Positions 14,701 through 62,164 of a stretch of 64,000 nucleotides of DNA are shown here, piece after piece. The notes under the pieces are model-generated. The model did not search any database. It had not been told where the DNA came from and worked only from the letters and a program-made list of their open reading frames with translations. The stretch covers positions 10,106,001-10,170,000 of the forward strand of contig OZ286468.1 of assembly GCA_965644265.1 (NCBI GenBank), read 5' to 3'. Position 1 is the first letter of the stretch, and every line of letters begins with the position of its first letter. This DNA comes from Glycera tridactyla. Its lineage: Eukaryota. Both the position numbers and the translations under genes were made by a program.

Positions 14701-14736
14701 ATTGAACTGGTAGACACTAAGTTGAATTGCCCATCG

Positions 14737-18142: not shown

Positions 18143-18145
18143 AAA

Positions 18146-18361
18146 TGTTAGGTCCCTCTTTCTAGGTACTCACCATGTATGAGTAGGGAACCTTCAGGAA
18201 CCACTGGGCTCTCGAGTCCAAACTCTTCCTTTGTGCGTTGTCACCAGCGCTCCACTGTGGACTGCCTGAACAAAGCTCTCTTCGCGCCAATTTACGTCAC
18301 TTCGGGTTGCACCTCGCATACAGACGCTCTTCTCGATTTACCTCATAGTCAGATGCTCACA
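18146..18361 (-). repeat. 5' LTR of Gypsy-1
   Basis: Direct repeat of 11263-11478, followed by the PBS. Confidence 0.95.
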
Positions 18362-18425
18362 TGATCATGTCACTCTTTCGGGCGGACTATTTTCGTGTAT
18401 GGCGTTTATGATATTTAATTCATTT

Positions 18426-34985: not shown

Positions 34986-35292
34986 ATTGATTGATTGTTT
35001 AAGGTTTAACGGCATGTATCAACCCACAGGATTATTTATGCCGTGTGTTCCTTCCTTAATGAAAGCTAGATGTTCTCTCCCCTGCAGACATCACTCTCAC
35101 AAACCCTGAACACAAGATGATGGGGAACCTGAAAGGTTGTCAAGTGGAAGTAGCTGACAGTTCAAACACACCTCTACCTAATCTAAACATATACAAATAA
35201 ACCTAGGATGGCATATCTAACTATATAGCTGGCTGGAAGCTAACACCCAAGCCTGATAGCAATGCATTTTTTTTTTCGCAAAGCGCAGCACT

Positions 35293-36804
35293 TGAAGTGT
35301 GTAAATTACACTTCTGGCAAGTTTATAGCAAATGTACTTCTGGCATAGATGTAGGAATAATCTGAATAGATATCTGGTCAGTCTATCAATAAATCTCAAC
35401 TATAGCAAGTGTGAGAGTGAATACAAACGCAATCAGTTCCATATAAGTCCAGATTTAATGGCACACAACACAAACTATATGACTATACAGTTGTGGCCAA
35501 TAATGAATGGGTGGTGACTAAAACTAGGTGCTAGTGATGTGCTGATGATGAGGGATGACCGATGTGCTTGGTGTAGCAGCTGGGAGCAGAGTGACCCTGA
35601 GTTCTATTCTCCCACTGGTTTGTTGAACACACAGCATCATTGGTAGCATCACACACACACACCCAGCAGCATGTAGAAACATAGCAACCACCAACTCATT
35701 ATCATGCACACAGAGACACCAAAACTACTCACAGTAAATACAAATGACTACATAGCAAAATAATGATATACACATGAACAATAAGTTTCTCTGTTACAGG
35801 ATATGAATCTATTATTGGTGATTATGTTTTCAGGAGGGAATGGTGATGCTCCATCCATAAATAGTACCAAACAAAATAATTAGTACAAGACAATTGAAAT
35901 TATATTTGGGTGTAAAGGGGTGTCTGAGGCCAGCTTCCTGGCAACCGTATGCACACTCCTGTACACACATACACTTGCATGTAGCAAGTTGGTTACCTGG
36001 CATCTGTCTGACATGACAACTTTGTTTGGACATGACTGTAACCATCTAAGTGTGGAATCATTACCAATGATATTAATCTTATTTATGATCTTCTGTGGCA
36101 GGACTGTGTGGGTTGTGACTGATTAGAGCCCAACCTGTATTAAGAGACTGGTCCTTCACACAGAGGAAGATATACAATAAGATATTGCATATGAGGAAGA
36201 TTGTCTCCTTGATAGACACAATATCAGCAGGCATTTTTCAGCACACATGGAAATACTTGGGGGGGGGGGGGTTCTGACTCCCCAACTCAGTAACTGGTCA
36301 CTGACCTGGTGATGCAGGGCATGCTAGTGCCTGCCTGCTGTACAGGGGGCATGCTGAAACCAGATAACATGTTTGCATCTGAAATGAGCTTGTGTCATGG
36401 AGTCATGTCCATTCCTTTGTATGTTTGGTGACTATTTCATCAGCTAGGAATTGAAGGAAAATAAATGATGAAAATGCCAGGATTGACATTTCTGATTGTT
36501 TCAAAACAGGAAGTAGAATATAAGATAATGACCATTTCCAGGGAGACAGATTGGTTAAATATAAGATTATAGATTGTCTCAACTGGAATGAGGTCAGCAA
36601 TAGGCAATATTATAAAATAGGTCAAGTTAGAATATATCAATCAATAAAATAATTCATATTCAGATCACCTTCCTGTGATCACCTCAACTTCATCAATCAA
36701 TCAAAAACAAATTTCATCTGGCTGTCAACTTCCTGACATTGACATGGCAACCCACTGGTTCCAGTCAAACCTGTCCTCTTGACAGCACAGATTTCGGTCC
36801 TACA
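35293..36804 (-). repeat. 3' LTR of Gypsy-2
   Basis: Repeat of 47529-49040 (offset 12,236). Confidence 0.97.
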
Positions 36805-36819
36805 ACTACTCCCCCCCTC
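36805..36819 (-). promoter_or_regulatory. PPT of Gypsy-2 (GAGGGGGGGAGTAGT)
   Basis: Abuts the 3' LTR; identical to 60367-60381. Confidence 0.9.
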
Positions 36820-38266: not shown

Positions 38267-40322
38267 TCACTGCATGTATGTACCCGGTGCACTAGAGGTC
38301 GCTGGCGTCAGCTGGAGGTACGAGTTGGCCGGTGTTATGACGGGCTGCACCCCCTGGTGGCTGTACGTGACTGGTTGACTTTGTGTGACCGTAGCAGGTA
38401 CGTGGTCGCGCACAACTTGCATTTCAGTACCACCTGCTTGTTCAATTGATTCGCGCCGTGATCGTTTAGATTGCCTCACACATTTAGTTGCCAACCACCG
38501 AATGATGTTGACTAGTGGACAGGCCCTAATTTTATCCTTGAATCTCCAAACAAGCACACACATACACACACATATCATCAACAAAATGCAGAAAACAACA
38601 ATCAATGCATAAAATGTGAATGCTCCCGATTTCCCTTGCGTGGGAAATTTCTTATCATCTAAGTCATCCAGCAAGACACGTATCCTATGGTGTAAGGTTG
38701 AGATGGATGGTGAACCATCCAGAAGGTGGTCCAACTGATCAGGGATCTGGTCGATTGTTCGATCCAGGTCCTCGATCAGAGGGTTCCAAATTCTGGCTGG
38801 GAGTGGTAGATGAATATGTACAGATGAGGATGAGTGCAAATCTAAGGAGGAGTCATTATAATAGTAGGGGGGTAACTGCAATGTATCACACTGAGCATAG
38901 CATGCATTAGGGAGGGAAAGTAAACCTAGGGGTGGTTGAATATGTACAATAGTGGTTGGCGCATTATCACAAACTTGTGAAAATACTAATGCGCGGCGAG
39001 TGGCAATTTGCCAAGCGCCATTTCCTATATAATATGCACGCACCGGTGGTTGCTGTGTGCGGTGCACGTTAGTGCGACAAAACCGGGTTGGGTCGGCTTG
39101 ATGGGTGAGCAGGTTGACCACACAGTTGTCGCTCAGTGTGTTTGTGTAATAGACAGGGGCATTAAGTCTACACAAATTGAAGGCATTTGACACACACTGA
39201 AAAATATTGCTCGACTCGATGAAACTGACTTTGCTGTTGTCATGTGAAATAGCCACATACTTGTGTGGTATATCATAAGTAGCAACAATAGACGTGTTTT
39301 TAAAAGGTAATTCAAACAGAATGACTTCATACACTAGGAACTCAGCTGTTAAATCAGCCAAAGGTATATCTAAAACAACAGTGAATTCATGTGGTGTTGG
39401 ATAAATCTGCACATTTAGATACTGGTAGTACTGGAACAGGTTTGTCTGTGGTGAGAAGGGTAGATGCAGGGTGGGTGGGAGGTTATCTGCTATTTCCTGG
39501 AGTATTTGGCTGAGGTGAAATGGAGAAATGACAGAGGGCGTGAGGTGACCTTGGAAGAGATCGGACAGTTGAATGGACAGCTCATCAAGGACAAGGCGTA
39601 ACTCAAGCATAGAACTGCGTGTGGTTGTGATAATGGTCTGAATTTGAGAATAATGGAGGATGAATATACGAAAGGTTTTGAGCATCAGTTCATCTTCATT
39701 AATTTGTTTTGCCACATTAGATAATCTATTAATTGCTCGTCTGTTCTTGGCAACATCTAAACGTGTAGCGTTAATAAGTGTTAAACTATCTTCTGTCACA
39801 TGAGCTACAGCTTCTGTAGATAATCTCAAATTTGTCAATGCACTATGAAGTGCTCTGATAGTGCTTTCGTCAGCCACACCAAATAGACCATGAAGAATGG
39901 ACCCCATGAATGGCAGAAGTGAACGCTGTTTCCTGTTGGCATTACGCGAGGCATCCAGAAGGATTAAGTGCTGGCCTAATTTAAGTTTCATTTCATTGAG
40001 TTCGTCCTCTAAGCTAGAGGCGAGTTTGTGTAATTGGCGCATAATTGGCAGATAAGTCGCGTAAACATCCGGAGCGAATTGTTTTCTGGTTTTACTAATG
40101 AGTGAGTTAATGTTAGATGTAACATTGACAACCTGCGACTGCATGTGAGTGATGATATTTTCATAAGGTTCTAATGGGATGTTGAGAGCAATCTGCCACT
40201 TGTTCTGTGTGGTGAAGAATTGGTTGACGGGGCGGAATGCGACCGGGCTGGGCTGTTGCGATGAACCAAGAAGGGGTGATGCCCGAGAAGCCGCGTTGAT
40301 GGAGAGGAGTATGACTGACAGC
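38267..40322 (-). CDS. env: Envelope glycoprotein (class I fusion, baculovirus-F/errantivirus-like), main exon
   Basis: Hydrophobic signal region LSVILLSINAASRA, furin site RKQR followed by a fusion-peptide-like SLLPFMGSILHGLFG, heptad region, Cys-rich ectodomain with N-glycosylation sequons, TM FTFYALIVVFCILLMICVCMCVLVW, cytoplasmic tail; acceptor ctaat...tgttgcag|G at 40323/40322. Confidence 0.9.
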
Positions 40323-40907
40323 CTGCAACAGATGTGATAAAGCACAGATTAGTTGCGATTGGCTGAGGGAGTGAGCGCATCAATTTAAAAGACAAGAACA
40401 GAGATGAATTGGGAAAAAAAAAAATTGTATGTGCCCTCAGGCGTATCTGGTGGATTTTGATGTGCCAGTCGGTGATTTTATGTGCCCGGATCGAGCGATA
40501 TTTTTTTTTTTTTTGTTTGACCACTCTCGAAGCGCTAAAACAATACAGCAGGGTATCAATAGATAGCACCAAATGCGCAGAGAGTGATTGTACTTGCGTG
40601 CATCAGGATCGTTTTCGAGAGAATTTCGATATTTTTGCCACAAACGTGATGAGAACACTCGGCAGGTATAACCATTCAAGTGTCTCCCGCCATCTTGGGT
40701 TCATCGAATTCGATCACGTGCCTTGATAGTCTGGTTCCTGTCAGAACCGTCAGGTGGTGGAGTGTGGTGTGCGGACAAAATTCGCCATCTAGCAATTGGT
40801 CTGAGACTTAGCCATGCTGAAATCTCATCATACTCTCGCAATCGCGAGAGTTCGCGCGGGATTTAGGAGCCATCTTGAAAATTTTTGAAGATGGAGGGAG
40901 ATAAACA

Positions 40908-41200
40908 TCTCTGTTAACCGGAAAGTATCACCAAAATTGACCGATTTGGTCCGGATTTTCGCCAATGTAACCGAGTTTTGGACGTTTCCATGCCAGATTG
41001 TGTGATTTTCATCTCTGTTAACCGGAAAATATCACCAAAATTGACCGATTTGGTCCGGATTTTTGCCGATTTCAGCGAGTTTTGGACGTTTCCATGCCAG
41101 ATTGTGTGATTTTCGTCTCTGTTAACCGGAAAGTAGCACCAAAATTGACCGATTTGGTCCGGATTTTCGCCGATTTCAGCGAGTTTTCATGCCAGATTGT
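40908..41200. repeat. 104-bp tandem repeat, about 3 copies, between integrase and env
   Basis: tctctgttaaccggaaa recurs at 40908, 41012 and 41116. Confidence 0.9.
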
Positions 41201-41333
41201 GCTGCGAGAAACACGCGGGTTTTGTTGTTTGATGCGATGATGGAGCGAGGCCGCGTTCAATCTCGATCCTCGCGAGTATATTGCGGCTGGAGGGGGGGGG
41301 GGGGGGGGGGGGTTTCAAGAGGATGATTGCCAC

Positions 41334-42875
41334 TTAGATGCGATTGGCCAGTCGGGAAGAGCGTCTGAGTGATTGACAGGCGTCATGAGGTTGGCGGTCT
41401 GGCTGGGGGATTTGATTGACAGGACGCGAAGACGGCGGCGGTGAAGGCGGCGGCGATTCCGGACCAGGTGTGCCGGCATCTGTTTGATGTGGTGGCGGCG
41501 TGGGGGGCGGAGATGGAGGGCGAGAAAGGAATGCAGCATCCAGTGGCGCATGAACGTGCATGTCGAGAATGCGTGCGTGTGTCGGGTTTGTGTGTGTTGT
41601 GCGTGCGTGAACTGACCGTGCGTTCAAGTTATTGTCCCGTGCTTCATGAAAAATGTATTTTGCAGAGCGACCTGTCTGAAGTGGTATGTCACGAGAAATA
41701 CCCCAATTTGGATCTTCATTCGCTTTTCTGAGAGAGCGTTCATGAAGACGTGTGACATGATCTGTGAGTAAATGCTTGACTCTGAATGTGTGTGGCCCCA
41801 GGATTTCTATGATACGGCCATGTGCAAGAAATGGCGGATCAAGTTTATCTTTGCTCAGATGATTTTTGATGTAAACTGGGTCACCAAGTTGGAACTCTTG
41901 AGTAGTAGCCTTCTTGTCATGGTACTCTTTGTTTTTAGCTGCACTCTCCTGCATGTTTGAACGTGCTTGACGCCATGCTTTATGCATTTTATTGAGAGAG
42001 ATTGTGGCGGGATTGTCACCTGTGTAATGAAGGCGTGGTTTGAGAAGTGTATCTACAGGCATGAGGGGATCTCTGCCATAGAGTAGAAAGAAAAGAGAGT
42101 GTTGAGAGGCAGTGTGATCTGAGCATCTGATGGCACTTAACAGGGCAGGCAAGTGCTTGTCCCATTGCAACTTCTCATTAGGCGGAAGTTTGCGAAAATA
42201 CGCCGTCATGTCACGGTGTATGCGTTCACATTTTCCATTTGCCTGAGGTGAGTAGTTGGCACATCTGACATGCATCATGCGTAGATGTGTACTCATGTAC
42301 TTAATTACATCATTGACAAACTCGCTCCCATTGTCAGAAATGAGAAAGCGTGGTGTAGAATGTCTCGCCACGATATCACCTAGGAGGAAATCAGCCACCG
42401 TGGCAGCAGCTTTGTTTGCTGTTGCCTTGGCTTCGACCCAGCCTGTAAACTGGTCAATTGCAGTAATGATGTAATTGTTACCATCGTAAGATGTGGGTAA
42501 CGGACCATAAAGATCAACGCTCAGAACTTCCATAGGGAATGTGGGTATTGGATTGGTGAGCAGGGGTGGGTCAAGTGTACCAAGATTGACTGTGTTGCAA
42601 GGAATGCAATTGTCAACGAACAAGACTGTGTCACGGTACATGCCTGTCCAGTGATAAGAACGTCGAAGTCTGGCGTACATCTTCTTTGCCCCTAAGTGTG
42701 CTCCCATGTACCCTTCATGAGCCTCTTTCAAGAGATCATTTTGCATGATCTCAGGGATCAATAAACGTGGTGGATCAGGCTCTGAAATGTAGTACAACCT
42801 GTCCTGGAGAATAGCGTATCGCTCACGCACATTGGGTGGTGTGTGTGTGTGTGAGTTGATGTTTGATGCGTGCAA
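41334..42875 (-). CDS. Integrase part of Gypsy-2 pol, out of frame with the upstream pol at an (AC)n tract
   Basis: HEGYMGAHLG...CIPC; DDE residues in VDLYGP, ISDNG and GKCER. Confidence 0.92.
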   Translation of the reverse strand: MHASNINSHTHTPPNVRERYAILQDRLYYISEPDPPRLLIPEIMQNDLLKEAHEGYMGAHLGAKKMYARLRRSYHWTGMYRDTVLFVDNCIPCNTVNLGTLDPPLLTNPIPTFPMEVLSVDLYGPLPTSYDGNNYIITAIDQFTGWVEAKATANKAAATVADFLLGDIVARHSTPRFLISDNGSEFVNDVIKYMSTHLRMMHVRCANYSPQANGKCERIHRDMTAYFRKLPPNEKLQWDKHLPALLSAIRCSDHTASQHSLFFLLYGRDPLMPVDTLLKPRLHYTGDNPATISLNKMHKAWRQARSNMQESAAKNKEYHDKKATTQEFQLGDPVYIKNHLSKDKLDPPFLAHGRIIEILGPHTFRVKHLLTDHVTRLHERSLRKANEDPNWGISRDIPLQTGRSAKYIFHEARDNNLNARSVHARTTHTNPTHARILDMHVHAPLDAAFLSRPPSPPPTPPPHQTDAGTPGPESPPPSPPPSSRPVNQIPQPDRQPHDACQSLRRSSRLANRI

Positions 42876-45645
42876 GCTTTGTGTCTTGTTCTTGGAGAGT
42901 GGCCATTTTGGCTATGTTGATGATCGGTGGTGGTGGGAGGGGGGTGTCAAATGCATGAGTGTGTGGGTCATGGTGTGTACTATCAGCCTTGTCAACTTTG
43001 CCTACTGGTATGTCATCAGTGTTGATCAAATCAACCTCGGCACCTGAGCATGAAATGATGTCCACATCATCATGGAAATCTAGCTCAATATCCACTGGTT
43101 GGTTTGGACAGGTATTTGCTATGGGCCGGTGATTTGGAAACTCGCAAATTGTGATGTTGCTGTTAGAATGTTCAATTCTGCTGAGGAAATCAGCCACAGC
43201 ATTGTTTTTGCCAGTGACATGTTTGATGTCACACCCGAATTGGGCAATGGTCATGGACCATCTTTGTATTTTCGGGTTTGTATGTTGACTACTTTTCATG
43301 TGCGTGAGAGGTGCGTGATCTGTGAACACCGTGAATGGGCGTCCATAAAGGATTGGGCGGAATGCTGATAGTGCCTTGACTATAGCAAACATCTCACGCT
43401 CATAAGTCGACCATTTCCTCTGGGCGTCCGACAATTTGGCTGACAGGAAATGTATTGGTCGGTGGCACTTATTAGTGTCAACTTGGCAGAGGACTGCTCC
43501 GATGCATGTGCTTGATGCATCTGTCCAAAGAGTAAAAGATTTACATGGATCTGGATGCACAAGTATTGGAGGCGAAAGAATGGCTTGTTTCAAGTCCTGA
43601 AATGCATGTTGACATTCAGGACTCCATACAAATTTTGCATCCTTCTTTGTAAGTGACGTCAGTGGTCTCGCTCGAGCTGCAAATCGTGGGATGTACCGCC
43701 GATAGTAACCAGTCATGCCAAGAAATGATCTGACACCTTTGACGTTAGATGGTGGTGGGCAGTTCTGAATGGCTTCAATCTTGGCTACCTGCGGTTTGAT
43801 ACCCTCCCTGGTGACTACATGTCCGAGGAACTCAAGTTCTGATTTCAGGAACTCGCATTTTGCTTTGTTCATCTTGAGTCCTGCATTTGATATTCGCTGT
43901 AGTACCACTCTCAAGTGTTCTAAATGCTCATCGAAAGTCTGAGAGTAGACGAGAATGTCGTCGGCATACGAGGTCACGAATGTGTTTTTGATGCCATTTA
44001 ATATACGATCCATTAGCTGAGCGAAGATCGATGGAGCATTTGTCAGTCCAAAAGCCAGCGTGTTGTATTCAAATAACCCTTCAGAGCAGACGAAGGCTGA
44101 TTTTGGTCTGTCTTCAGGTTTCAGGGGTATCTGATGAAAGGCGTGGCTGATATCCAGACTGCTGAAATAATGCGTCCCTGCCAGCGTGGTGAGAATCTGG
44201 TCTATCTGTTCAAGGGGCCAGTAGAATTTCTCAGTTACTTTGTTCAAGGGATCATAGTTAACGACAAAGCGAATTTTGTTCCCCTTTTTGGGAACAGCGA
44301 AAAGTGGACATGCCCAGGGGCTTTGGCTTTCTGTGATCACTCCAGCCTTAAGCATATCTCTAATCTGACGTGCCATTTCAGGCCGTATGGCGGCGGGCGA
44401 CCGATAGGGTGCAACTTTGATGGGAGGTGAATTTCCAGTTTTGATTTCAACTTCCATGAGTTTAGTAGACCCAATATCGTAGTCAAATTTAGAGAATGAG
44501 TGATCGAATTTGGTAAGTAGATTTTCAAGTGCTTGTCTCTGATGTTTTGGTGTATCAGGTGTCCCAATATTTAGTTTGCTGTAATCGCATGGTTCCCCAA
44601 ACTGTGGTTTTTTCCACTTCGAGTTCGGTGTATTTTCGGAGATTTCGTCAATTTCGGAATTTAGGCGATTTTCAGAATATTGTGACATGCGACCTTGACA
44701 TGTTGTGGTTAGTTTGATATTAGCAGCACATGTGTTTTGCGATTTACTCTTGCTGGTGTTCGCGGTGGCGACATTCCGATCAAGTTTCGCTTCCTGTTCG
44801 TGCGCGTCTGTCTCACAAACAGTATCGGATACTGGCGCTCCAGTATCATGTGTAAATGGGCGGATTTCGTGCACTTTCACAAAGCCGATTTGAGCAAGTG
44901 CTGTTCCACGCAATAATTGAAATCGTTTGCCTGTGTTGTTTACGAGTACATATGGGACGCACCCTTTCTCGTGTGTTTGAACGATGCCTGGTAAGCCAGT
45001 CAAACCAGGTTCTCGGTCAGCTATCCCATTGGGATGCTCAGAAATCTCATAAATATCATCTTCACCTAAAGGTGGCATGAGTTTAGGTATTTTGAGTTTG
45101 ACAGAAGCTGCTGAATAAGGGGGAATTTCAGTGTTCTCTGCAAGTCTGCATATACTCTCTATCTGGTAAGTGGGCGTGAGTTTTATCACGTGTTTCTTTA
45201 TAGTGAGTGTGTTTGCTCCGCAATCAAGAATGGCACCTGTGGCACGCAAGAAATCTGCACCTAGCAATATGTTTTGCTTAAATTCTGGTACTACATCAAA
45301 AGTGTGTGAATAGCGTCTGTCATCTATACCAACCTCAACAGAATGGATCCCACTATGAGGAATAGGGTCCCCAGAGGCTGATCGCAGTTGACTGTTGGAA
45401 TGAGGGAGAGCTATTCTCTTGTCTTTTGGACAAAATTTGAGCACATTTGGTTTCATAATAGACACCTCGGCGCCTGAATCTATAAGTGCACGTGTGCTGT
45501 GATCCCCAATTTTTATAATACAAGTGGGACGGTTAGTGCCTTTGGTATTTACAGTGTAGATTCTACAATTGGAGACATCTTTTTCTGACATGGGTTGACT
45601 TTGACTTCCTACTTGGTCTCCACAAGCAGGAATTTCTAGTTTGGG
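42823..45645 (-). CDS. Gypsy-2 pol (protease-RT-RNase H), entered by -1 frameshift
   Basis: LIDSGA, LDISHAFHQI, LAFGL, YADD, WTDAS; the frame is open upstream to the CCCAAAC slippery site (45639-45645). Confidence 0.95.
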   Translation of the reverse strand, partial: PKLEIPACGDQVGSQSQPMSEKDVSNCRIYTVNTKGTNRPTCIIKIGDHSTRALIDSGAEVSIMKPNVLKFCPKDKRIALPHSNSQLRSASGDPIPHSGIHSVEVGIDDRRYSHTFDVVPEFKQNILLGADFLRATGAILDCGANTLTIKKHVIKLTPTYQIESICRLAENTEIPPYSAASVKLKIPKLMPPLGEDDIYEISEHPNGIADREPGLTGLPGIVQTHEKGCVPYVLVNNTGKRFQLLRGTALAQIGFVKVHEIRPFTHDTGAPVSDTVCETDAHEQEAKLDRNVATANTSKSKSQNTCAANIKLTTTCQGRMSQYSENRLNSEIDEISENTPNSKWKKPQFGEPCDYSKLNIGTPDTPKHQRQALENLLTKFDHSFSKFDYDIGSTKLMEVEIKTGNSPPIKVAPYRSPAAIRPEMARQIRDMLKAGVITESQSPWACPLFAVPKKGNKIRFVVNYDPLNKVTEKFYWPLEQIDQILTTLAGTHYFSSLDISHAFHQIPLKPEDRPKSAFVCSEGLFEYNTLAFGLTNAPSIFAQLMDRILNGIKNTFVTSYADDILVYSQTFDEHLEHLRVVLQRISNAGLKMNKAKCEFLKSELEFLGHVVTREGIKPQVAKIEAIQNCPPPSNVKGVRSFLGMTGYYRRYIPRFAARARPLTSLTKKDAKFVWSPECQHAFQDLKQAILSPPILVHPDPCKSFTLWTDASSTCIGAVLCQVDTNKCHRPIHFLSAKLSDAQRKWSTYEREMFAIVKALSAFRPILYGRPFTVFTDHAPLTHMKSSQHTNPKIQRWSMTIAQFGCDIKHVTGKNNAVADFLSRIEHSNSNITICEFPNHRPIANTCPNQPVDIELDFHDDVDIISCSGAEVDLINTDDIPVGKVDKADSTHHDPHTHAFDTPLPPPPIINIAKMATLQEQDTKLARIKHQLTHTHTTQCA

Positions 45646-46916
45646 TTATTTTCAGGGCAGTATTTGCGCATATGTCCCAATCTGGAGCATTTTCCGCAGA
45701 TGGGCGTACCATCGGTGGCCCATTTGTAGGCGGTATTGTTTCGGGATTCAGCACCGGCATGATTCAGGACTGGAGTTTGGTTGCTGCCCCCTTCGCTTGT
45801 GACCCCCTTGTTTGCGTGAGGGGCGTTATTTGGCATCTGTACCCATCGCTTGGGTACGCGGTAGACTGCGCGTCCTGGCGGGCCTCGGTTGCTCGTATTT
45901 GGACGTGAGTGACCCCCCCTTCCTTTGTGTGCATTTCCGCGCCATTCTCGCCGAATTTCGCAAATTTCAAATCCATTTTCATCAACGAGAACTTCGTCTT
46001 CCCCAAATTCTTCCGATGCATATTCGTTTTGATACTCGTGTTGGGTCGCGTCTCCATTATCTGAGTAATTGATGTTTGGACCGAATCGTGTCGTTAAATA
46101 TTGACCACCCTCGATGGCGGAAATATCCATGGGTTCCGGAGATTCGGCTCTGCGTGGGCGATTTAAATACGCCTCAATGTGACTAGTGATCCCTGCCTCA
46201 GATGCAGCACTCGCAACCGCGGCTTGTAATGTGTTCGGTTTCCGACGGCACAAATGCTTCACGATTTGATCATTCCTTACACCAGCTACAAATGCCTGTA
46301 TGAGCATTCTCTGCGCGGCACGTGACATGATCTCATTTGCGCCAAAACCATCCATGCCTGTCTCGTGAACACGTTCGCCAAACATAGTGATAGGTTCATT
46401 TGGTTTACGAACCAAACGCGTGAGTTTGACGAGAGCACTTGATTGATCCTCAGGTTCATCAAATCTCAACCTAATTTGCCCAGCAAAATTGTCCCAATCA
46501 GGAGCTTGGTGATTTTGTAATAATTCTGAGTAGAATCGGTGGATCCAGTCAGAGGCTGGACCAGTGGCGCTCGACAAACAGAGTCTCAGACCAACTTCTG
46601 CATCACCTCCAAGAATGAGTTTGTGTTTCTCTACCTGTTTGAACCAATTTCTGAATTTTTTAGGGTTACCGTCAAATGGCGTGATCTTTTGAGCCGACGA
46701 AGAAAATGAAATTTCATTTTGTACACGCGCTAAGATATGTTGAATGTTAGCGCCTTGTTGCATAAGCATGTTCATCGGATCGGGCGGAGGTGCGGCCGGT
46801 TGGGCTGGCAGCGGCTGCTGGGGTTGCTGGCCGTCCGCCGGGACAGGCGGGAGAGGTTGATCATGCGGGGGAACATTGGGATGTACTACCTGTTGTACGT
46901 GCTGTTGCTGATGCAT
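45636..46916 (-). CDS. Gypsy-2 gag, 426 aa
   Basis: ITPFDGNP...WF capsid motif and C-terminal CCHC knuckle CGKCSRLGHMRKYC. Confidence 0.92.
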   Translation of the reverse strand: MHQQQHVQQVVHPNVPPHDQPLPPVPADGQQPQQPLPAQPAAPPPDPMNMLMQQGANIQHILARVQNEISFSSSAQKITPFDGNPKKFRNWFKQVEKHKLILGGDAEVGLRLCLSSATGPASDWIHRFYSELLQNHQAPDWDNFAGQIRLRFDEPEDQSSALVKLTRLVRKPNEPITMFGERVHETGMDGFGANEIMSRAAQRMLIQAFVAGVRNDQIVKHLCRRKPNTLQAAVASAASEAGITSHIEAYLNRPRRAESPEPMDISAIEGGQYLTTRFGPNINYSDNGDATQHEYQNEYASEEFGEDEVLVDENGFEICEIRREWRGNAHKGRGGHSRPNTSNRGPPGRAVYRVPKRWVQMPNNAPHANKGVTSEGGSNQTPVLNHAGAESRNNTAYKWATDGTPICGKCSRLGHMRKYCPENNPN

Positions 46917-47174
46917 TTTAACTTACCGGTTGAACTTCCAACACACAATTCAATAATAGATATCGATATTCAATGAATCTCTGATCCCGTTTTCTGCATT
47001 ATGTAGACAAATTCACGCACAGATTCACACACAAATACATACACTGTTGGAGTTGAAATGTTTGTGACAAGAATGTGCTTCACCTGGGGCTATGAATGAT
47101 CGCTTCTGGTGTGCGTTTTTGAGATAGGCTACCGATCACGACGAGAACAATCAAACAAAACAAATGGCACTTAC

Positions 47175-47188
47175 CATACAATGCGCAT
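47175..47188 (-). CDS. env: Predicted env micro-exon (ATG CGC ATT GTA TG|gtaagt)
   Basis: Consensus donor GTAAGT. The phase-2 end completes TGG with the G at 40322, giving MRIVWLSVILLSINAASRA. Confidence 0.65.
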
Positions 47189-47204
47189 GATGTGATGCTC
47201 TGCT

Positions 47205-47477
47205 CTAGTCTTCTGAGTCACGGGAGTTGTAGCCATCATCAGGGTAAACTAATCTGACTAGTCTTTCAAATTCACAGTGAAATGCAATGCAGATAGGGCA
47301 AATTTTACAGTACTTGATGTCACTCAGTGGATCGCAACGAGTGCACAATGTACAGGGTTTCAAACGTGGATAACCGGCAGCTATCAGTTCAGAAAGGAGT
47401 CCTGGATGGGCTCGTGTGAGTTCAAGTAGAAATTCTCGCACAGATTGCTGAGAAATAGCGTCACTGATAATGACCAT
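47205..47477 (-). CDS. Small Cys-rich leader ORF (90 aa) between the PBS and gag
   Basis: ATG-initiated and intact; CTLCTRC...CKICPIC...HC cluster; function unknown. Confidence 0.5.
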   Translation of the reverse strand: MVIISDAISQQSVREFLLELTRAHPGLLSELIAAGYPRLKPCTLCTRCDPLSDIKYCKICPICIAFHCEFERLVRLVYPDDGYNSRDSED

Positions 47478-47514
47478 TTATGTTGTGATTTACCGAGACG
47501 GCTCGAATGCTGGC

Positions 47515-47526
47515 TCTACGGCTCCA
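47515..47526 (-). promoter_or_regulatory. PBS of Gypsy-2 (TGGAGCCGTAGA), imperfect tRNA-His-like
   Basis: Starts TGG 2 nt after the 5' LTR; 8/9 match to the recalled His PBS TGGTGCCGT. Confidence 0.55.
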
Positions 47527-47528
47527 GA

Positions 47529-49040
47529 TGAAGTGTGTAAATTACACTTCTGGCAAGTTTATAGCAAATGTACTTCTGGCATAGATGTAGGAATAATCTG
47601 AATAGATATCTGGTCAGTCTATCAATAAATCTCAACTATAGCAAGTGTGAGAGTGAATACAAACGCAATCAGTTCCATATAAGTCCAGATTTAATGGCAC
47701 ACAACACAAACTATATGACTATACAGTTGTGGCCAATAATGAATGGGTGGTGACTAAAACTAGGTGCTAGTGATGTGCTGATGATGAGGGATGACCGATG
47801 TGCTTGGTGTAGCAGCTGGGAGCAGAGTGACCCTGAGTTCTATTCTCCCACTGGTTTGTTGAACACACAGCATCATTGGTAGCATCACACACACACCCCC
47901 AGCAGCATGTAGAAACATAGCAACCACCAACTCATTATCATGCACACAGAGACACCAAAACTACTCACAGTAAATACAAATGACTACATAGCAAAATAAT
48001 GATATACACATGAACAATAAGTTTCTCTGTTACAGGATATGAATCTATTATTGGTGATTATGTTTTCAGGAGGGAATGGTGATGCTCCATCCATAAATAG
48101 TACCAAACAAAATAATTAGTACAAGACAATTGAAATTATATTTGGGTGTAAAGGGGTGTCTGAGGCCAGCTTCCTGGCAACCGTATGCACACTCCTGTAC
48201 ACACATACACTTGCATGTAGCAAGTTGGTTACCTGGCATCTGTCTGACATGACAACTTTGTTTGGACATGACTGTAACCATCTAAGTGTGGAATCATTAC
48301 CAATGATATTAATCTTATTTATGATCTTCTGTGGCAGGACTGTGTGGGTTGTGACTGATTAGAGCCCAACCTGTATTAAGAGACTGGTCCTTCACACAGA
48401 GGAAGATATACAATAAGATATTGCATATGAGGAAGATTGTCTCCTTGATAGACACAATATCAGCAGGCATTTTTCAGCACACATGGAAATACTTGGGGGG
48501 GGGGGGGTTCTGACTCCCCAACTCAGTAACTGGTCACTGACCTGGTGATGCAGGGCATGCTAGTGCCTGCCTGCTGTACAGGGGGCATGCTGAAACCAGA
48601 TAACATGTTTGCATCTGAAATGAGCTTGTGTCATGGAGTCATGTCCATTCCTTTGTATGTTTGGTGACTATTTCATCAGCTAGGAATTGAAGGAAAATAA
48701 ATGATGGAAATGCCAGGATTGACATTTCTGATTGTTTCAAAACAGGAAGTAGAATATAAGATAATGACCATTTCCAGGGAGACAGATTGGTTAAATATAA
48801 GATTATAGATTGTCTCAACTGGAATGAGGTCAGCAATAGGCAATATTATAAAATAGGTCAAGTTAGAATATATCAATCAATAAAATAATTCATATTCAGA
48901 TCACCTTCCTGTGATCACCTCAACTTCATCAATCAATCAAAAACAAATTTCATCTGGCTGTCAACTTCCTGACATTGACATGGCAACCCACTGGTTCCAG
49001 TCAAACCTGTCCTCTTGACAGCACAGATTTCGGTCCTACA
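47529..49040 (-). repeat. 5' LTR of Gypsy-2
   Basis: Repeat of 35293-36804. Confidence 0.97.
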
Positions 49041-49257
49041 CACTTGACACATAGAAAAGCATTAGGTTAGGAGAATACTCAACCGAAGTGTTCAATTACA
49101 AACTGCCAACTTCAAACCAGCTTTACAATAATTTCATGTCCTATACTCGCAGTACGATGCCATCACACATCCTAGTAACCTAGTCATCAGCCCTAGTAAC
49201 CCAGAACTGGTGTGCTTGGTACCCGCTTTTTGCATAGTGACAATATCCACAGAGCAA

Positions 49258-49878
49258 ATGCAGCAACAGTACGCTACCTACTTGAGACGCCAGGGGAAAG
49301 CCCGCCTCAACCAAGTGGCTACCCTTCTCTCAGACTACAGCCGCACCAGCTTCACCCAGGCTGATGCCTATCGCAACACAGTCCGCAACCTATATGAGGG
49401 CTCTGGTGCAGATCTACAAGGGGCTCTCTCTCTTCTGGACAGCCTCTACCGCCAGGACCGCGACAGGAACCTGGCTTCAGTCACCTCGAGACGCCAACGC
49501 AACTCGGTGCCCACAGATGCAGATATCCTGTCTCACCACCTGCGTCAACCAGATTCCTATACCGCTAGGCGCCCCGCCGGCCCCTCAGCAGCTGCAGGAG
49601 CAGCCCCCAGACCCAGATCCAGATCCAGATCCCCAGTCAATCGACAGGGAAACTCCTACAGGCGGCCCCGCTCGCCCTCAGCTGGGGGACCCCGCCCGAG
49701 ACAGAATGGTCAGCAGGCTCCCCGACCACGCCCACGCCAACCACAACAACAACAACAACAACAACCACGTGTGGATGGCCAGCAGCTCACCCGGGCAGAA
49801 CAAGCAGCACTCCGTATCTTCCGCCAGAATGTGAGGGCTGGCTTCAGAGGCCCCAATCCAGCTACCAGGGAACAATAA
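49258..49878 (+). CDS. PLE ORF1, basic and R/S/P/Q-rich (RNA-binding or gag-like?), 206 aa
   Basis: ATG 10 nt inside the left TSD; helical-looking N-terminus, RSRSRSP and PRPRP tracts; TAA at 49876-78. Confidence 0.7.
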   Translation: MQQQYATYLRRQGKARLNQVATLLSDYSRTSFTQADAYRNTVRNLYEGSGADLQGALSLLDSLYRQDRDRNLASVTSRRQRNSVPTDADILSHHLRQPDSYTARRPAGPSAAAGAAPRPRSRSRSPVNRQGNSYRRPRSPSAGGPRPRQNGQQAPRPRPRQPQQQQQQQPRVDGQQLTRAEQAALRIFRQNVRAGFRGPNPATREQ

Positions 49879-52625
49879 GCACTTCGAGCCCTGGGGCCAT
49901 AGCTGCCACCAGTGACACCCCTCTCGGTGCTACTTTCACCAGCAACCTGTTATGTTTTCCACCAGCCAGAACACTACCTGTTCTCTCTAATGATCACAAC
50001 ACTACTTTGAGAGTTTCCCCCATTGTGGTCACCCCTAGTCAGGAGCCACTCAACACCCTCTCACAGACACCAGTTACCACGACGGTGGAATCTTCCACCC
50101 CGGGTTGTAGCCAAGTCTCCTCACCTTATCATGTACACCCTACCTATCTGAAAGACAGACTTGCCAATCTGGCCACAGTCCTCAATCTTACCACCCAAGA
50201 AGTGTCTCTCTCTGAGCTCTGTTTACACATTGTGCAAAATAAAAAATGTCAACTATGTTGCTCTCTGTGTCCTGTACAACAACCTTATATTGTCAATTTA
50301 TCTGATTTCACGTTGAATGATGATCACACCAGTGTGTTGTCTAAAGGCCTATCCTTCTGCCCCACTCCGGGTGAACCCGATCTAGGTGAGCTCCGGACAG
50401 ATCTCAACAGGTTTCACCGTTCACTCAGACTGAGATCATTTTTTGGCCCTTCAGAACTTGACCCTGAGTCCACATACACTACAAACACCACCAACACACT
50501 ACCCATCAACTACAACGGGAATGAACCTTTTGAACACCCAAAATTCAAACCCAAGTCGGTGTTCAACCCGAGAGGCCCACCACCTTTGGAGGCCTTTATT
50601 GCCAACAATGAGCTGGACCTCACACAGTCCCCCTCTCCCCGCCAGAAAAAAGATAACCTCTCTCGCAGGGAACGACGGGCTCTGGCAGATTTGAGAGCCC
50701 ATCAGGAATTTGTTATCAAACCAGCAGACAAAGGTTCTTCAGTGGTGATAATGAACACCTCTGACTATGTGGAAGAATGCCTCAGACTTCTGAACGATGA
50801 ACGATTCTATACCCCTCTTTCAGAAGATCCTACCACTCTCTTCAATGAGGAAATCAACAAGGAGATCAAGAGCGTGGAAAACAAAGGTGAAATCTCAGAA
50901 AAATGCTCCAAATATCTGAGGAATGACTCCCCCTCTGCAGGTGCTTTCTACATTCTACCAAAAATTCACAAGCCCCTACGCCCCCCTCCGGGTCGCCCCA
51001 TCATCTCTGCTATAGGAAGTCCAACAGAAAAAATCTCACAACTATTGGATTTTTTTCTACAACCCTACTTGACCTCTATCAAGTCATACATCAAAGACAC
51101 TACCCATTTTCTCTCATTGGTAGAATCTCTACCCCCCATCACTGGCAACTGCATTCTGGCAACATTAGATGTTGTCTCTCTGTATACTAACATCCCCCTG
51201 GAGGATGCTAGAAAAGCAGTAGCCATTGCCCTCAGAGACATGAGACCAGGGGCAACACATCCTTCCAACCAATCTCTCATCAAACTCTTAGATTTGGTCT
51301 TTCAAAAGAATGTTTTCACATTTTGTGATCAAAAAGACACCAGAATTTTCCTCCAAAACTCAGGTGTAAGCATGGGTTCAAAATGCTCTCCAGCTGTGGC
51401 ATGTGCTTTTATGAGCACCTTTGAAGAAAAACATGTATACAAGTACACCCACCAACCACTCCTGTGGAAAAGATACATTGATGATTGCATTATCATCTGG
51501 CAACATGGAGAAGAAGAATTACTGGAATTCACCAACTACCTCAATTCCAGACATCCCAGGGTCAAATTCACCCTGCACTACTCAACCTCTCAAGTAGACT
51601 TTCTAGACACCACCCTGTTCAAGAGTGACAATGGGACCTTGAAAACTACCCTATTCTGCAAACCAAATGACTCCCACAACTACCTACTGTACTCATCCTC
51701 CCACCCAGACACAATCAAAAAAGGATTACCCTACAGCGAATTCCTTCGTGTCAGGCGCATCTGCAGCAAAACAAGTGATTTTTTAGGAAACACTGCTATG
51801 CTAGCAGCCCACTTCATCAGAAGAGGCTACCCTCTCAACATTTTAGAGGAAGCATTCAACAAAGTGAAGAACACCACCAGGGAAGAACTTATCATCCAGG
51901 CAGATCTATCCACCACAGCACCACTCAAACCAGGTGTGAACAGCCAGAATGACAGTCAAACCACCACAGGTAAACTATTCTCAGTGGTGACATACAACCC
52001 CAGGGGTAACCCCAATCAGCATGTCATCAAACATAATTGGAACATGCTGGGCACCTCAGGGACAACCTGGGACCTCTACCAACACCAGGTCATCCATGGA
52101 TACAGAAGACCAAAAAACTTACGAGACCTCCTGGTCAACTCCCGCCTGAAACTCCCATCAACTACCACTAAGAGGGGGGTTTCAGGCATGGTGATGAGGG
52201 ACTGCACCCGCAGTGACTGCACATATTGTCACAAACTAAACAAAACTGGCACAATATCTTCACCAGTTACACACCAATCATCCAAGTGCTGCCGAAACTA
52301 CACCTGTGAAAGCAGTAATGTCATTTACTGCTTACACTGCCAGCACTGTTCTAAACTCTATGTGGGACAAACTAAAAGGAGACTCAGAGAAAGACTATAC
52401 GAGCATTTTCGCTCTATCAAAAAACCACTCAGGGACACCCCCATGGGCGCACACTTCTCTCAACCTGGCCATCCAGGCCTGGAAACTCTCGAAATCTTTG
52501 TCCTTAAATTTATTAAGGCCAACCCAGATTCAGCTATAGCCCAACACGACCGAGACATCCATGAAACTAAATGGATCCACCGTCTAAGGACTTCCTTGCC
52601 ATTCGGCCTAAATAGTATGGACTAA
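49569..52625 (+). CDS. PLE ORF2: reverse transcriptase plus GIY-YIG endonuclease (stop-to-stop extent; no upstream ATG)
   Basis: LSKGLSFCP, KPADKG, LPKIHK, GRPIIS, LDVVSLYTNIP, GVSMGS, KRYIDD, CTRSDCTYC linker, NVIYC...LYVGQT...EH; no stop between the TAG at 49566-68 and 52625. Confidence 0.93.
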   Translation, partial: APRRPLSSCRSSPQTQIQIQIPSQSTGKLLQAAPLALSWGTPPETEWSAGSPTTPTPTTTTTTTTTTCGWPAAHPGRTSSTPYLPPECEGWLQRPQSSYQGTISTSSPGAIAATSDTPLGATFTSNLLCFPPARTLPVLSNDHNTTLRVSPIVVTPSQEPLNTLSQTPVTTTVESSTPGCSQVSSPYHVHPTYLKDRLANLATVLNLTTQEVSLSELCLHIVQNKKCQLCCSLCPVQQPYIVNLSDFTLNDDHTSVLSKGLSFCPTPGEPDLGELRTDLNRFHRSLRLRSFFGPSELDPESTYTTNTTNTLPINYNGNEPFEHPKFKPKSVFNPRGPPPLEAFIANNELDLTQSPSPRQKKDNLSRRERRALADLRAHQEFVIKPADKGSSVVIMNTSDYVEECLRLLNDERFYTPLSEDPTTLFNEEINKEIKSVENKGEISEKCSKYLRNDSPSAGAFYILPKIHKPLRPPPGRPIISAIGSPTEKISQLLDFFLQPYLTSIKSYIKDTTHFLSLVESLPPITGNCILATLDVVSLYTNIPLEDARKAVAIALRDMRPGATHPSNQSLIKLLDLVFQKNVFTFCDQKDTRIFLQNSGVSMGSKCSPAVACAFMSTFEEKHVYKYTHQPLLWKRYIDDCIIIWQHGEEELLEFTNYLNSRHPRVKFTLHYSTSQVDFLDTTLFKSDNGTLKTTLFCKPNDSHNYLLYSSSHPDTIKKGLPYSEFLRVRRICSKTSDFLGNTAMLAAHFIRRGYPLNILEEAFNKVKNTTREELIIQADLSTTAPLKPGVNSQNDSQTTTGKLFSVVTYNPRGNPNQHVIKHNWNMLGTSGTTWDLYQHQVIHGYRRPKNLRDLLVNSRLKLPSTTTKRGVSGMVMRDCTRSDCTYCHKLNKTGTISSPVTHQSSKCCRNYTCESSNVIYCLHCQHCSKLYVGQTKRRLRERLYEHFRSIKKPLRDTPMGAHFSQPGHPGLETLEIFVLKFIKANPDSAIAQHDRDIHETKWIHRLRTSLPFGLNSMD

Positions 52626-52970: not shown

Positions 52971-53636
52971 AGCCCCAGGACACTAATTTCAAACCCTTGT
53001 ATCTGAATTCTCTTGGTCTATCCAAGATGGGCCAGCCACCCATCAAGGAGAGACAATCAACAAAGAGCCTATTGTTGGCTTCGCCTCTGTGACGTCCTCG
53101 ACGTCTCGACGTCCCCTCTATGACGTCACGGGCTTATCGTTGCTCAGCGACGTTGTTACGTAGTCAAGAAACCGGCTACGTTGATGACGCAGGTGAACCG
53201 GTTGCCAGGTTCCGCCAGTTAACGTGAGAATTCATTTCTCACCTCGCTGTCGTGCAGATCAGACGTGACTCACCTTCTTCTTCCCCCGTCTAAGCATAGT
53301 GACAATATCTGCAACAGGCAAACCGTTAGCTACCTACACTGGAGACCATTTCGCTGAAGAAATAAGAAGGAGCTTAGAGTGATAGAAAAGATGTGAAGAG
53401 AAAGAAACCATGGTGATAGTGTAATTTTGGTAGAAAATACCTAAAGACAGATGACAGAAATTTGGAAGGTATGTTTTCATTCAACCCCCACACCAAAAAC
53501 CTATTGAGAAAAAGAGAAGGGATGATGCTACATCTAGGCCACATCATCCCCGATGGCAACACTTCAAAGAAAAAGACCCGCGCCCATTGGTGGCTGCCTT
53601 CTGTAGAGACCCTGGACTCCCACCCTACCCACATAT

Positions 53637-55599
53637 TGTAGGACTGAAATTCTATGTCTGAGAGATTTGAAAGTCTGAATTTAGAAGTTTGAATTTGAAT
53701 TTAGAAGGTTTGAATTTGAATATAGAAGGTTTGAATTTGAATATAGGAATTGAATTGCACGCCACAGTTGGATACACTCTTAGTAGATATGGATGTTGGT
53801 TTTAGATCATGAAACAGAGGTTCATCACACGAGTCATACTTAGGAGTTTATTATCAGTAGTATTGGTGGAATGACTGTGAACAGCAATGAAAGAGTGTGT
53901 AACTGTGCTCAATAGTTTGAATGAGAGATATGAATGAGACCTATGAATGTGATGGATGTCTTGAGCAGTATGCGAGGCATGCTGACACATGATGGTTAAA
54001 TGATTGAAATATGATTTCCATGTTTTACAGACATGATATTGTGAATATTGGTGATTTATACAGATAGCCAGGTCTGGAATGGTCTGTGAGAATGGAACTC
54101 ACAGATAGGTAGAGAAACTGGATTTCTCTCTTCTAATTGAATATCGTATCATGTATTGTTGAACCAATCATTAGATCTTAGATAGAAACTAGAGTATATG
54201 ATTGCAATATATCATATTCATATTTAAGCCAGCTTAGATCAGATGATTGTGGCATGAACATGGTGAATGCCAGCTGGCATGGGAATCTCCCTGATGTACA
54301 TCTTTTTGCACATCAGAGGCATGTCTCAAACATGACAGTTTACAGTCAAACCTCCCTATAAAGACCGCCTTCGGTCGCATCAAAAAGTGGCCTTTATAGG
54401 GAGGTGGTCTTTATAGAGAGGTCATTAACTGTTGAAAATACTTCCACGGTCGCAGTTCAGGGCGGTCTTTATAGGGAGGTGGTCTTTATAGAGAGGTGGT
54501 CTTTAGAGGAGGTTCGACTGTATTTTCTCTTGTTTATTTCACCATCATTACTGAAAATTACATCAATTAAGAAATATTTTGATCATCAGTCTATCCCAAT
54601 ACCTTGATATGTTGCTCATGCCCTGTACATGTAAACATGGGGAAATGACCAACCCGCATCTCATTATGCAAGAATGCTCACCCCCAGTTCCCACCACCAT
54701 CTGCAAGCTAGCTCTTGCTAGAATTGCCCCTGAGTGGCTTGGATTTAATTTGTATCAAAGATCCCAATCTTCAGGATAAATACCTGGCTGATTCAGACAC
54801 AATTATTTTAGAAACATTCTGAAGTCAGCGTGAAATTCTTCAGAGTTTATCTCAACAGAAGTGTTGTGATAAAGTTGCATGAATGTGAGCCATGAGTGGT
54901 GCACTGATTGCATCAGTGCATCCCTCTGCCACTCTCCTACACTACCCCTAGCAACCGGCTACAACAAGTACAGCCTGTTGTGGGGGAAGCCCTCATTTAC
55001 CTTGGCTTTATGCGAGCAACCTATTGCAGCTCACATTCAGCCAGTGATTGTTTATTTCTGTGTCCATTCATATTTCTGTCAATAGTTAACATATTACAGT
55101 CAAACCCATCTTGAAAGATGTGTCTCAGTGTCAGGCACGCATTGGTATATAGTTCATATGTTTATTCAATGTTTATTTCATGATGTGCATGCCTTTCCCC
55201 ATAAACCCTAATATTGTATATGGTCATAGAGAGGTTGTGAAACCTTCTCTGTATAATGAGGCAAGTGGTGGACAAGTTTGGGACATGTTTTGGGGGAGGA
55301 TGCTTGTGATGCTAACTTTGTCTATATGAGTCAGTGTGTGGAAACAATCCTGATCACTTGGCTTCCTGCAGACATACGTTGCACATCAGTCACCATCATC
55401 ACCCAGCACTTAGTCCTTAGTTTGTATAGCACTTCTTCATTATTGGCTACTCCCTAGAAAGAGTACCAGTAAATGATTTATAGACTCTACCTACTCGTTT
55501 GTCTTCTTACAAGTGACATTCTATCCGACATTTTGTGAAGTTCAGTACACATATCATCACGGCCAAAGGTAGGAAGTGTTGAGAATTTACTCCACTTCA
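53637..55599 (+). repeat. 5' LTR of element 3 (contains a MITE insertion)
   Basis: 1963 bp minus the 180-bp insertion equals 1783 bp, matching 60382-62164. Confidence 0.95.
54343..54520. mobile_element. TA-MITE inserted in the 5' LTR of element 3
   Basis: cagttTA[CAGTC...GACTG]TAttttctc versus the empty site cagttTAttttctc in the 3' LTR (about 61085). Confidence 0.95.
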
Positions 55600-55601
55600 A
55601 G

Positions 55602-60366: not shown

Positions 60367-60381
60367 GAGGGGGGGAGTAGT
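60367..60381 (+). promoter_or_regulatory. PPT of element 3 (GAGGGGGGGAGTAGT)
   Basis: Abuts the 3' LTR; identical to the Gypsy-2 PPT. Confidence 0.9.
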
Positions 60382-62164
60382 TGTAGGACTGAAATTCTAT
60401 GTCTGAGAGATTTGAAAGTCTGAATTTAGAAGTTTGAATTTGAATTTAGAAGGTTTGAATTTGAATATAGAAGGTTTGAATTTGAATATAGGAATTGAAT
60501 TGCACGCCACAGTTGGATACACTCTTAGTAGATATGGATGTTGGTTTTAGATCATGAAACAGAGGTTCATCACACGAGTCATACTTAGGAGTTTATTATC
60601 AGTAGTATTGGTGGAATGACTGTGAACAGCAATGAAAGAGTGTGTAACTGTGCTCAATAGTTTGAATGAGAGACATGAATGAGACCTATGAATGTGATGG
60701 ATGTCTTGAGCAGTATGCGAGGCATGCTGACACATGATGGTTAAATGATTGAAATATGATTTCCATGTTTTACAGACATGATATTGTGAATATTGGTGAT
60801 TTATACAGATAGCCAGGTCTGGAATGGTCTGTGAGAATGGAACTCACAGATAGGTAGAGAAACTGGATTTCTCTCTTCTAATTGAATATCGTATCATGTA
60901 TTGTTGAACCAATCATTAGATCTTAGATAGAAACTAGAGTATATGATTGCAATATATCATATTCATATTTAAGCCAGCTTAGATCAGATGATTGTGGCAT
61001 GAACATGGTGAATGCCAGCTGGCATGGGAATCTCCCTGATGTACATCTTTTTGCACATCAGAGGCATGTCTCAAACATGACAGTTTATTTTCTCTTGTTT
61101 ATTTCACCATCATTACTGAAAATTACATCAATTAAGAAATATTTTGATCATCAGTCTATCCCAATACCTTGATATGTTGGTCATGCCCTGTACATGTAAA
61201 CATGGGGAAATGACCAACCCGCATCTCATTATGCAAGAATGCTCACCCCCAGTTCCCACCACCATCTGCAAGCTAGCTCTTGCTAGAATTGCCCCTGAGT
61301 GGCTTGGATTTAATTTGTATCAAAGATCCCAATCTTCAGGATAAATACCTGGCTGATTCAGACACAATTATTTTAGAAACATTCTGAAGTCAGCGTGAAA
61401 TTCTTCAGAGTTTATCTCAACAGAAGTGTTGTGATAAAGTTGCATGAATGTGAGCCATGAGTGGTGCACTGATTGCATCAGTGCATCCCTCTGCCACTCT
61501 CCTACACTACCCCTAGCAACCGGCTACAACAAATACAGCCTGTTGTGGGGGAAGCCCTCATTTACCCTGGCTTTATGCGAGCAACCTATTGCAGCTCACA
61601 TTCAGCCAGTGATTGTTTATTTCTGTGTCCATTCATATTTCTGTCAATAGTTAACATATTACAGTCAAACCCATCTTGAAAGATAGGTCTCAGTGTCAGG
61701 CACGCATTGGTATATAGTTCATATGTTTATTCAATGTTTATTTCATGATGTGCATGCCTTTCCCCATAAACCCTAATATTGTATATGGTCATAGAGAGGT
61801 TGTGAAACCTTCTCTGTATAATGAGGCAAGTGGTGGACAAGTTTGGGACATGTTTTGGGGGAGGATGCTTGTGATGCTAACTTTGTCTATATGAGTCAGT
61901 GTGTGGAAACAATCCTGATCACTTGGCTTCCTGCAGACATACGTTGCACATCAGTCACCATCATCACCCAGCACTTAGTCCTTAGTTTGTATAGCACTTC
62001 TTCATTATTGGCTACTCCCTAGAAAGAGTACCAGTAAATGATTTATAGACTCTACCTACTCGTTTGTCTTCTTACAAGTGACATTCTATCCGACATTTTG
62101 TGAAGTTCAGTACACATATCATCACGGCCAAAGGTAGGAAGTGTTGAGAATTTACTCCACTTCA
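60382..62164 (+). repeat. 3' LTR of element 3
   Basis: About 7 substitutions noticed versus the 5' LTR; lacks the MITE. Confidence 0.95.

Follow-up and report, generated by a model that had tools for sequence, protein, structure and literature searches.

How is an envelope gene translated when its own reading frame offers no start codon ahead of the signal peptide? The question is raised by a 64,000-nt stretch of the Glycera tridactyla genome (contig OZ286468.1, positions 10,106,001 to 10,170,000; hereafter the window), which holds a Ty3/gypsy element with an F-type envelope gene (an errantivirus in the broad sense); the host is a lophotrochozoan. The element spans 49040 to 35293 on the minus strand; coordinates refer to the window and to that strand unless marked otherwise. 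The stop-to-stop env frame has a TAA directly upstream, and a first-pass annotation of this DNA was right that no ATG precedes the signal region; the first Met is codon 69 (40144), not about codon 66 as it had counted. Here we propose that a spliced RNA, in which 47175 is joined to 40322, is the likely template for Env translation, and we describe a small cysteine-rich gene, ORF0, that overlaps the coding part of the predicted leader exon and had been missed in the first pass.

Splice sites of env

A protein search of the genome returned 109 env matches, and 35 copies other than the one in the window were fetched. One copy per family was analysed, giving 14 families including that of the window (15 for the acceptor); the three most distant copies, near-duplicates, and any copy that lacked a recognisable leader or long terminal repeat (LTR) pair were excluded. 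In the window, the predicted donor GTAAGT (47169–47174) is the top-scoring one in the leader, and its TAA ends the leader peptide in unspliced RNA. The predicted branch point and acceptor of env occupy 40323–40352 (CTAAT, and a CAG ending at 40323). Both sites are phase 2 and, as the first-pass annotation had seen, join in frame.

The top acceptor candidate is a phase-2 site, 34–40 codons ahead of a conserved env motif, in 13 of the 15 families. The exceptions are L043, in which a phase-0 site is followed directly by an ATG, and L049, which has no acceptor and its own ATG. For the best leader donor, chosen blind to phase among GT sites between the LTR and gag, the open ATG frame ahead of it is phase 2 in 10/14 families, phase 0 in three and phase 1 in one; at other leader GT sites, a phase-2 ATG frame is present at 127 of 635 (20%). 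Of the four families in which the donor misses phase 2, L043, L053 and L055 carry an ATG of their own close behind the acceptor, and L025 has a second-best donor that does fit phase 2. Since the donor consensus stands in phase 2, the stop of the leader frame in unspliced RNA falls within the donor in all ten families examined. A hydrophobic stretch is found at or just behind the junction in 10/10 families (best 10-residue mean hydropathy 2.2–3.1). The uncharged run that forms the hydrophobic core of the window signal peptide comprises two leader-side and eight env-side residues; in L029 the leader side is long and the env side short (7 and 4).

Several points weigh against this interpretation. 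The acceptor score was altered after the sequences had been seen; under the first score, the top site lay at the homologous phase-2 position in 9/14 families, and under the revised score the window acceptor ties with a phase-1 candidate. The donor matrix is approximate, and the binomial probability for the donor phase (4.6e-5) overstates independence, as the families share ancestry. L015 and L037 have a Met 3–5 codons behind the acceptor, where Env could possibly start. The junction, the start site and expression are themselves predictions from the comparison of genomic sequences, which leaves room for the view that splicing plays no part, with env either translated from an internal or non-ATG start or simply decaying. 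The phase concordance in 10/14 families, the conserved acceptor position, purifying selection on env (synonymous differences, pS, 0.74–0.82 versus nonsynonymous differences, pN, 0.20–0.34 among the four closest families) and the location of the first Met behind the signal region all speak against that view, which we regard as very improbable. The comparison of families thus supports a spliced env started from the leader exon, as first proposed. The piece taken for a 14-nt micro-exon appears instead to be the 3′ end of the leader exon, as no acceptor was identified just upstream of it.

The Env start codon

The coding end of the predicted leader exon (47175–47239) shares sequence, in a different frame, with the end of ORF0 and contains three in-frame ATGs, at 47239, 47236 and 47188. 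The first two, 65 and 62 nt ahead of the donor and separated from it by no stop, would give an Env of 706 or 705 codons; that at 47236 has an A at −3 and a G at +4. The third lies 14 nt before the donor GTAAGT (which begins at 47174) and gives 689 codons, the length reported in the first pass for this start. In the nearest family (C18) leader ATGs are found at 65 and 44 nt, with none at 14; L015 has them at 74 and 71 nt, and L013 at 68, 59, 50 and 8 nt. ATGs 62–74 nt upstream of the donor are thus kept in 4/4 families of the clade.

From this comparison, a leader coding part of 62–65 nt is more likely than one of 14 nt, which would make Env 705–706 codons long. The earlier proposal, in which Env starts solely at 47188 as a 689-aa protein, draws on the fact that this ATG is in frame and kept in 4/4 window-family copies that retain the leader. 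It lies 16 nt behind the ORF0 stop, where it could serve restarting ribosomes, and L013 and L025 likewise have a short in-frame ATG (8 and 5 nt). Against it stand the two in-frame ATGs upstream, one of them in a better context, and the lack of a 14-nt ATG both in C18, with an ATG kept at 65 nt, and in L015, with ATGs kept at 71/74 nt; we consider a sole start at 47188 unlikely. Nor is the 14-nt piece supported as the source of the signal peptide. In the window family, as predicted, the leader supplies the start and the n-region, and the env exon supplies most of the hydrophobic core. These observations suggest that annotation from genomic frames alone gives the wrong Env N-terminus in these elements.

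The Env protein

The env exon (38267–40322) encodes the signal-peptide core, a furin site, a fusion peptide and a transmembrane segment, the layout of an F-type class I fusogen. The furin site RKQR (39934–39923) and the transmembrane stretch (from codon 582, about 38605–38549) bear out those named in the first-pass annotation. Env matches Pfam Baculo_F (E 6.7e-14, 51.8 bits against a cut-off of 24.1), and its profile matches PDB entries 9w4c/9w4d, named ‘fusion protein’ (E 2e-18). A model of the ectodomain (predicted local distance difference test (pLDDT) 75, predicted template modelling score (pTM) 0.49) was matched by Foldseek to the F proteins of respiratory syncytial virus (RSV) and paramyxoviruses, with a best E of 9.7e-9 for RSV F at a TM-score of 0.36 and a high root mean squared deviation. 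The F-type assignment made in the first pass therefore stands, and Env is related to baculovirus and paramyxovirus F. Three distant elements of the genome (L061, L063 and L065) have longer env-like frames (887–1003 codons) and a very divergent reverse transcriptase (RT).

ORF0, a small cysteine-rich gene

Between the primer site and gag lies ORF0 (47205–47477), which encodes a 90-aa protein with the pattern CxxCxxC-x8-CxxCxxC. An ORF0-type frame, of 90–310 aa, is present in 8/14 families. Among the four closest families ORF0 shows purifying selection in 6/6 pairs, like env (pS 0.71–0.81 versus pN 0.27–0.46, computed over the part free of the env-leader overlap and with synonymous differences saturated). 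Five cysteines are invariant in the alignment (A1). A profile search of 1.84 billion representative proteins gave five matches, three of which are unnamed proteins of 83–93 aa (E 3e-11 to 2e-8) with the same cysteine pattern and a YPDxGY tail. The other two, a repeat protein (P0006) and a saposin (P0007), were judged spurious on their sequences; a repeat search that re-found P0004 and P0005 is not independent evidence, as both were in the query.

The best donor lies 1–40 nt behind the ORF0 stop in 7 of the 8 families. In two of these, L025 and L043, the distance is 1 and 2 nt, and no env leader peptide requires the donor to be placed just there. ORF0 therefore appears placed for production from spliced RNA. 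In the window its start has a T at −3 and a G at +4, and no ATG occurs between 47477 and 47239, which fits leaky scanning to env.

Could ORF0 instead matter chiefly in cis, its translation serving as a spacer that sets how much Env and Gag is made? The env leader ATGs cluster near the ORF0 stop in five families, and in L037 stop and start overlap, as such a spacer might have them. The invariant cysteines and the low pN, across families and in outside genomes, argue for selection on the ORF0 protein, and in L025 and L031 ORF0 is located behind the env leader donor; we consider a cis role improbable. ORF0 is, on its sequence, probably a small zinc-binding accessory protein.

Searches against known families and folds gave little. 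In Pfam the window protein scored no better than E 0.27 and the best of ten members E 0.011, and the best match among PDB sequences, at E 0.01, was the zinc stretch of ribosomal eL40. A model of ORF0 (pLDDT 72) found nothing at E 0.001 or better with Foldseek in PDB and BFVD; with VIA-align the best Z was 4.4, with none of 5 or more. ESM Atlas matches at 0.91–0.92 (137–149 shared features), which included bacterial helix-turn-helix clusters, were taken as chance-level. These failed searches do not show that the fold of ORF0 is new.

Whether ORF0 was gained or lost among the families is left undecided because the RT tree, which covers elements of this genome alone, is mostly unresolved (9/16 inner branches open). 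L106 and L107 are young, internally deleted derivatives of a related family that have lost pol and the start of env and carry ORF0 unchanged. The leader of L031 has a second, 90-codon frame containing Cys and His, ahead of ORF0 and overlapping the env leader donor.

Proposed expression of the element

We propose the following scheme. Full-length RNA would yield Gag, whose ATG stands behind ORF0 and other leader ATGs, and, through a −1 shift at CCCAAAC (45639–45645), Pol; in this RNA the env leader peptide would end at the TAA inside the donor. Heptamers of the form X XXY YYZ are known slippery sites, and this candidate stands in that phase before the gag stop. The spliced RNA (47175 to 40322) would retain the whole leader, with ORF0 as its first gene and env as its second. 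Ribosomes that bypass the middling start of ORF0 would meet no ATG for 238 nt and then start Env at 47239 or 47236; restart after ORF0, including at 47188, may provide a secondary route. ORF0 itself would be made from the spliced RNA as a small accessory protein, and the window copy would need integrase in trans. With the role of ORF0 set apart, we are fairly confident of the Gag–Pol shift, the two-gene spliced RNA, the need for integrase in trans and the status of ORF0 as a real accessory gene. A second strong donor-like site, CCG/GTAAGT (46926–46921), lies 10 nt before the gag ATG; no ATG frame is open to it in any phase.

Possible roles of ORF0

What might such a protein do? One tentative answer is that ORF0 is a nuclear regulator of the element's own RNA, acting on the balance or export of unspliced and spliced forms. 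We favour this role because of the position of ORF0 on the predicted spliced RNA and by analogy with CERV, a protein that exports the unspliced RNA of the Caenorhabditis elegans element Cer1 (Sun et al., PLoS Genet 2023, PMC10309623, as far as covered here). Like CERV, ORF0 has a conserved cysteine cluster, although with a different spacing.

Set against an RNA-regulatory role are several findings. No ORF0 was found in the other 6/14 env-bearing families, the L043-type ORF0 is a weak profile match (E 0.037), and L031 has no strong donor behind ORF0. The export factor Rev has an arginine-rich RNA-binding motif; in ORF0 the arginines are not clustered, and acidic residues outnumber basic ones (D+E 13, K+R 10).

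Alternatively, ORF0 may be a counter-silencing or chromatin- or DNA-binding protein, or a particle accessory, roles that are together about as likely as that of an RNA regulator and likewise possible rather than probable. Its patchy presence would suit a dispensable gene of host conflict. A zf-CXXC match was obtained for 2/10 ORF0 members, with none for the window protein; it is marginal (best E 0.015), and the zf-CXXC pattern has eight cysteines, in contrast to the six conserved in ORF0. The sORF1 protein of MDG1-group elements, whose frame is placed as ORF0 is, has a predicted helix-turn-helix and is nuclear, in the portion of the source covered (PMC11952523).

Were the RNA-regulator role correct, these elements might be ‘complex’ invertebrate retroviruses in which gag, pol and env are joined by a gene for a dedicated zinc-binding regulator. 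Produced early, from spliced RNA, this protein would switch the element to export of unspliced genomes. This picture is speculative; if true, it would amount to an independent invention of Rev/Rec logic in F-type errantiviruses and to a new protein family in several genomes.

Element anatomy and host

The element is bounded by LTRs of 1512 bp each with TG...CA ends (5′ LTR, 47529–49040; 3′ LTR, 35293–36804). Their gapless alignment contains two mismatches, the number noted in the first pass, and a 4-bp target-site duplication, AGTG, flanks the element (49041–49044 and 35289–35292); the insertion is thus young, as previously described. The primer-binding site (47507–47526) is an imperfect complement of host tRNA-His(GTG), with 16/18 identities with gaps, and a polypurine tract (36809–36819) lies 5′ of the 3′ LTR. 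The gag gene (45636–46916) has weak matches to Pfam Retrotrans_gag and Ty3_capsid. It is followed by a pol frame with protease, RT and RNase H domains, which stops ahead of integrase (42823–45645), and by an integrase frame with H2C2 and rve domains (41334–42911). The gene order is thus that of a Ty3/gypsy element, with all the terminal features of an errantivirus in the broad sense.

The primer sites of L013–L057 are tRNA-His-like as well; counted together with that of the window, 13/16 copies have mismatches or small insertions. Close copies differ here, one perfect and one altered (L013 versus L017, and L057 versus L055); the alterations may have allowed evasion of silencing by tRNA fragments, or may point to other primers. 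Elsewhere in the host genome (G000:C1:94.71-94.97 Mb), genes for tRNA-His, -Lys and -Met share a 1864-bp unit that forms a tandem array of about 90 copies. A homeodomain search of the genome gave 142 matches; the arthropod cuticle family PF00379 and molluscan haemocyanin PF14830 each gave 0, with uninformative controls. Directly behind one Hox homeodomain stands KLTGP, which marks Lox5 in lophotrochozoans and flatworms (PMC5431905, in the part covered); the host is therefore not an insect, as had been surmised.

Pol frame, copy integrity and age

In the window copy RT/RNase H (45645–42823) and integrase (42911–41334) are in different frames, separated by a frameshift in a CA tract (42830–42870). 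The end of RNase H and the start of integrase share one frame in the copies on C29 and C11 and in the second copy on C1, and most related families are likewise continuous there. A programmed frameshift at this point was ruled out on these grounds; the shift is a mutation or an assembly error.

The family of the window comprises five near-full copies in the genome (97–100% identity) and at least two solo LTRs. None of the five has all frames open. The description of the window copy as near-complete and potentially active is not supported: RT and integrase do not form one continuous frame, and although the insertion is young, the copy, from its sequence, lacks autonomy. Copies whose frames are all uninterrupted do exist in several related families. 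A 7.8-kb family without pol, present in many copies and represented by L104 (G000:C17:51316400-51326399) and L105 (G000:C34:17497800-17507799) shares about 94% identity with the LTR and 3′ region of the window element and is probably a non-autonomous passenger; its own LTR pairs are 99.9% alike. Such young pol-less derivatives, together with the open-frame copies of related families, point to recent mobilisation in the lineage.

The window family also differs from its relatives downstream of RNase H. Its integrase tail (41334–41640) is about 100 aa longer than theirs, and a gap of about 1 kb, including a 104-bp tandem repeat (40906–41217), separates integrase from env; in the relatives the env frame abuts pol.

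Other elements in the window

Adjoining the 5′ LTR is an open Penelope-like frame of 1018 codons on the plus strand (49569–52625), with RT and GIY-YIG domains; it is preceded by a 248-codon frame (49132–49878) with no Pfam match. The minus strand also holds, at 13484–17519, the gag, pol and integrase frames of an older gypsy element, with 92%-identical repeats at 11246–11479 and 18131–18362. Two repeats at 53636–55600 and 60381–62165, 99.5–99.9% identical and about 6.6 kb apart, possibly belong to a further young LTR element.

Comparison with known systems

Young F-type errantiviruses have been described in annelids and molluscs as ‘ancient errantiviruses’ (Chary and Hayashi, eLife 2026, PMC13524379). 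As far as that source was covered, the window element resembles them as a young, multi-copy gag–pol–env Ty3/gypsy element of a lophotrochozoan host, its F-type env carrying a furin site and a fusion peptide; the window family may already be listed in the supplements. The strings ‘splic’, ‘upstream of gag’, ‘sORF’ and ‘zinc’ do not occur in the main text of that paper, which describes neither the splice architecture nor ORF0.

An Env start supplied by a short leader exon is known from the ZAM and Beagle subclades of Drosophila (Senti et al., EMBO J 2025, PMC12992720). The window element shares with them a predicted leader exon that lies upstream of gag, encodes a peptide and matches the env acceptor in phase. 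Given these two partly covered precedents, one for the mechanism and one for non-insect hosts, the arrangement is not novel; it is a known mechanism, here extended by sequence comparison to a lophotrochozoan lineage. Its presence in 10/14 families suggests that this way of making Env is old or was repeatedly invented. ZAM and Beagle differ in belonging to an insect clade and in having no ORF0-like gene in the sections of that paper covered; the window element has a tRNA-His-like primer, and its leader peptide overlaps a fourth gene.

For ORF0 the nearest parallels lie elsewhere. Our literature search, whose scope did not extend to most subscription papers and Repbase entries, found no cysteine-rich upstream gene in env-carrying gypsy elements; it did list a plant ORF0 (PMC3485330). 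MDG1-group elements, which lack env, have sORF1 and sORF2 upstream of gag (Voichek et al., PMC11952523, covered in part). These are, like ORF0, small accessory frames under selection, and sORF1 is about 110 aa long and nuclear; in contrast to the window element, MDG1 elements are unspliced, the word ‘cysteine’ is absent from the main text of that paper, and ORF0 is likened to the sORFs by description. CERV, in the part of its source covered, is an accessory protein of a Ty3/gypsy element that is made from spliced RNA and has an essential cysteine-rich region; it is a functional analogue of ORF0 only. ORF0 matters more here than the Env start: next to these known systems it stands as a compact, selected and as yet unnamed candidate for the factor by which Ty3/gypsy elements with an envelope gene might set the balance between spliced env RNA and unspliced genomes.

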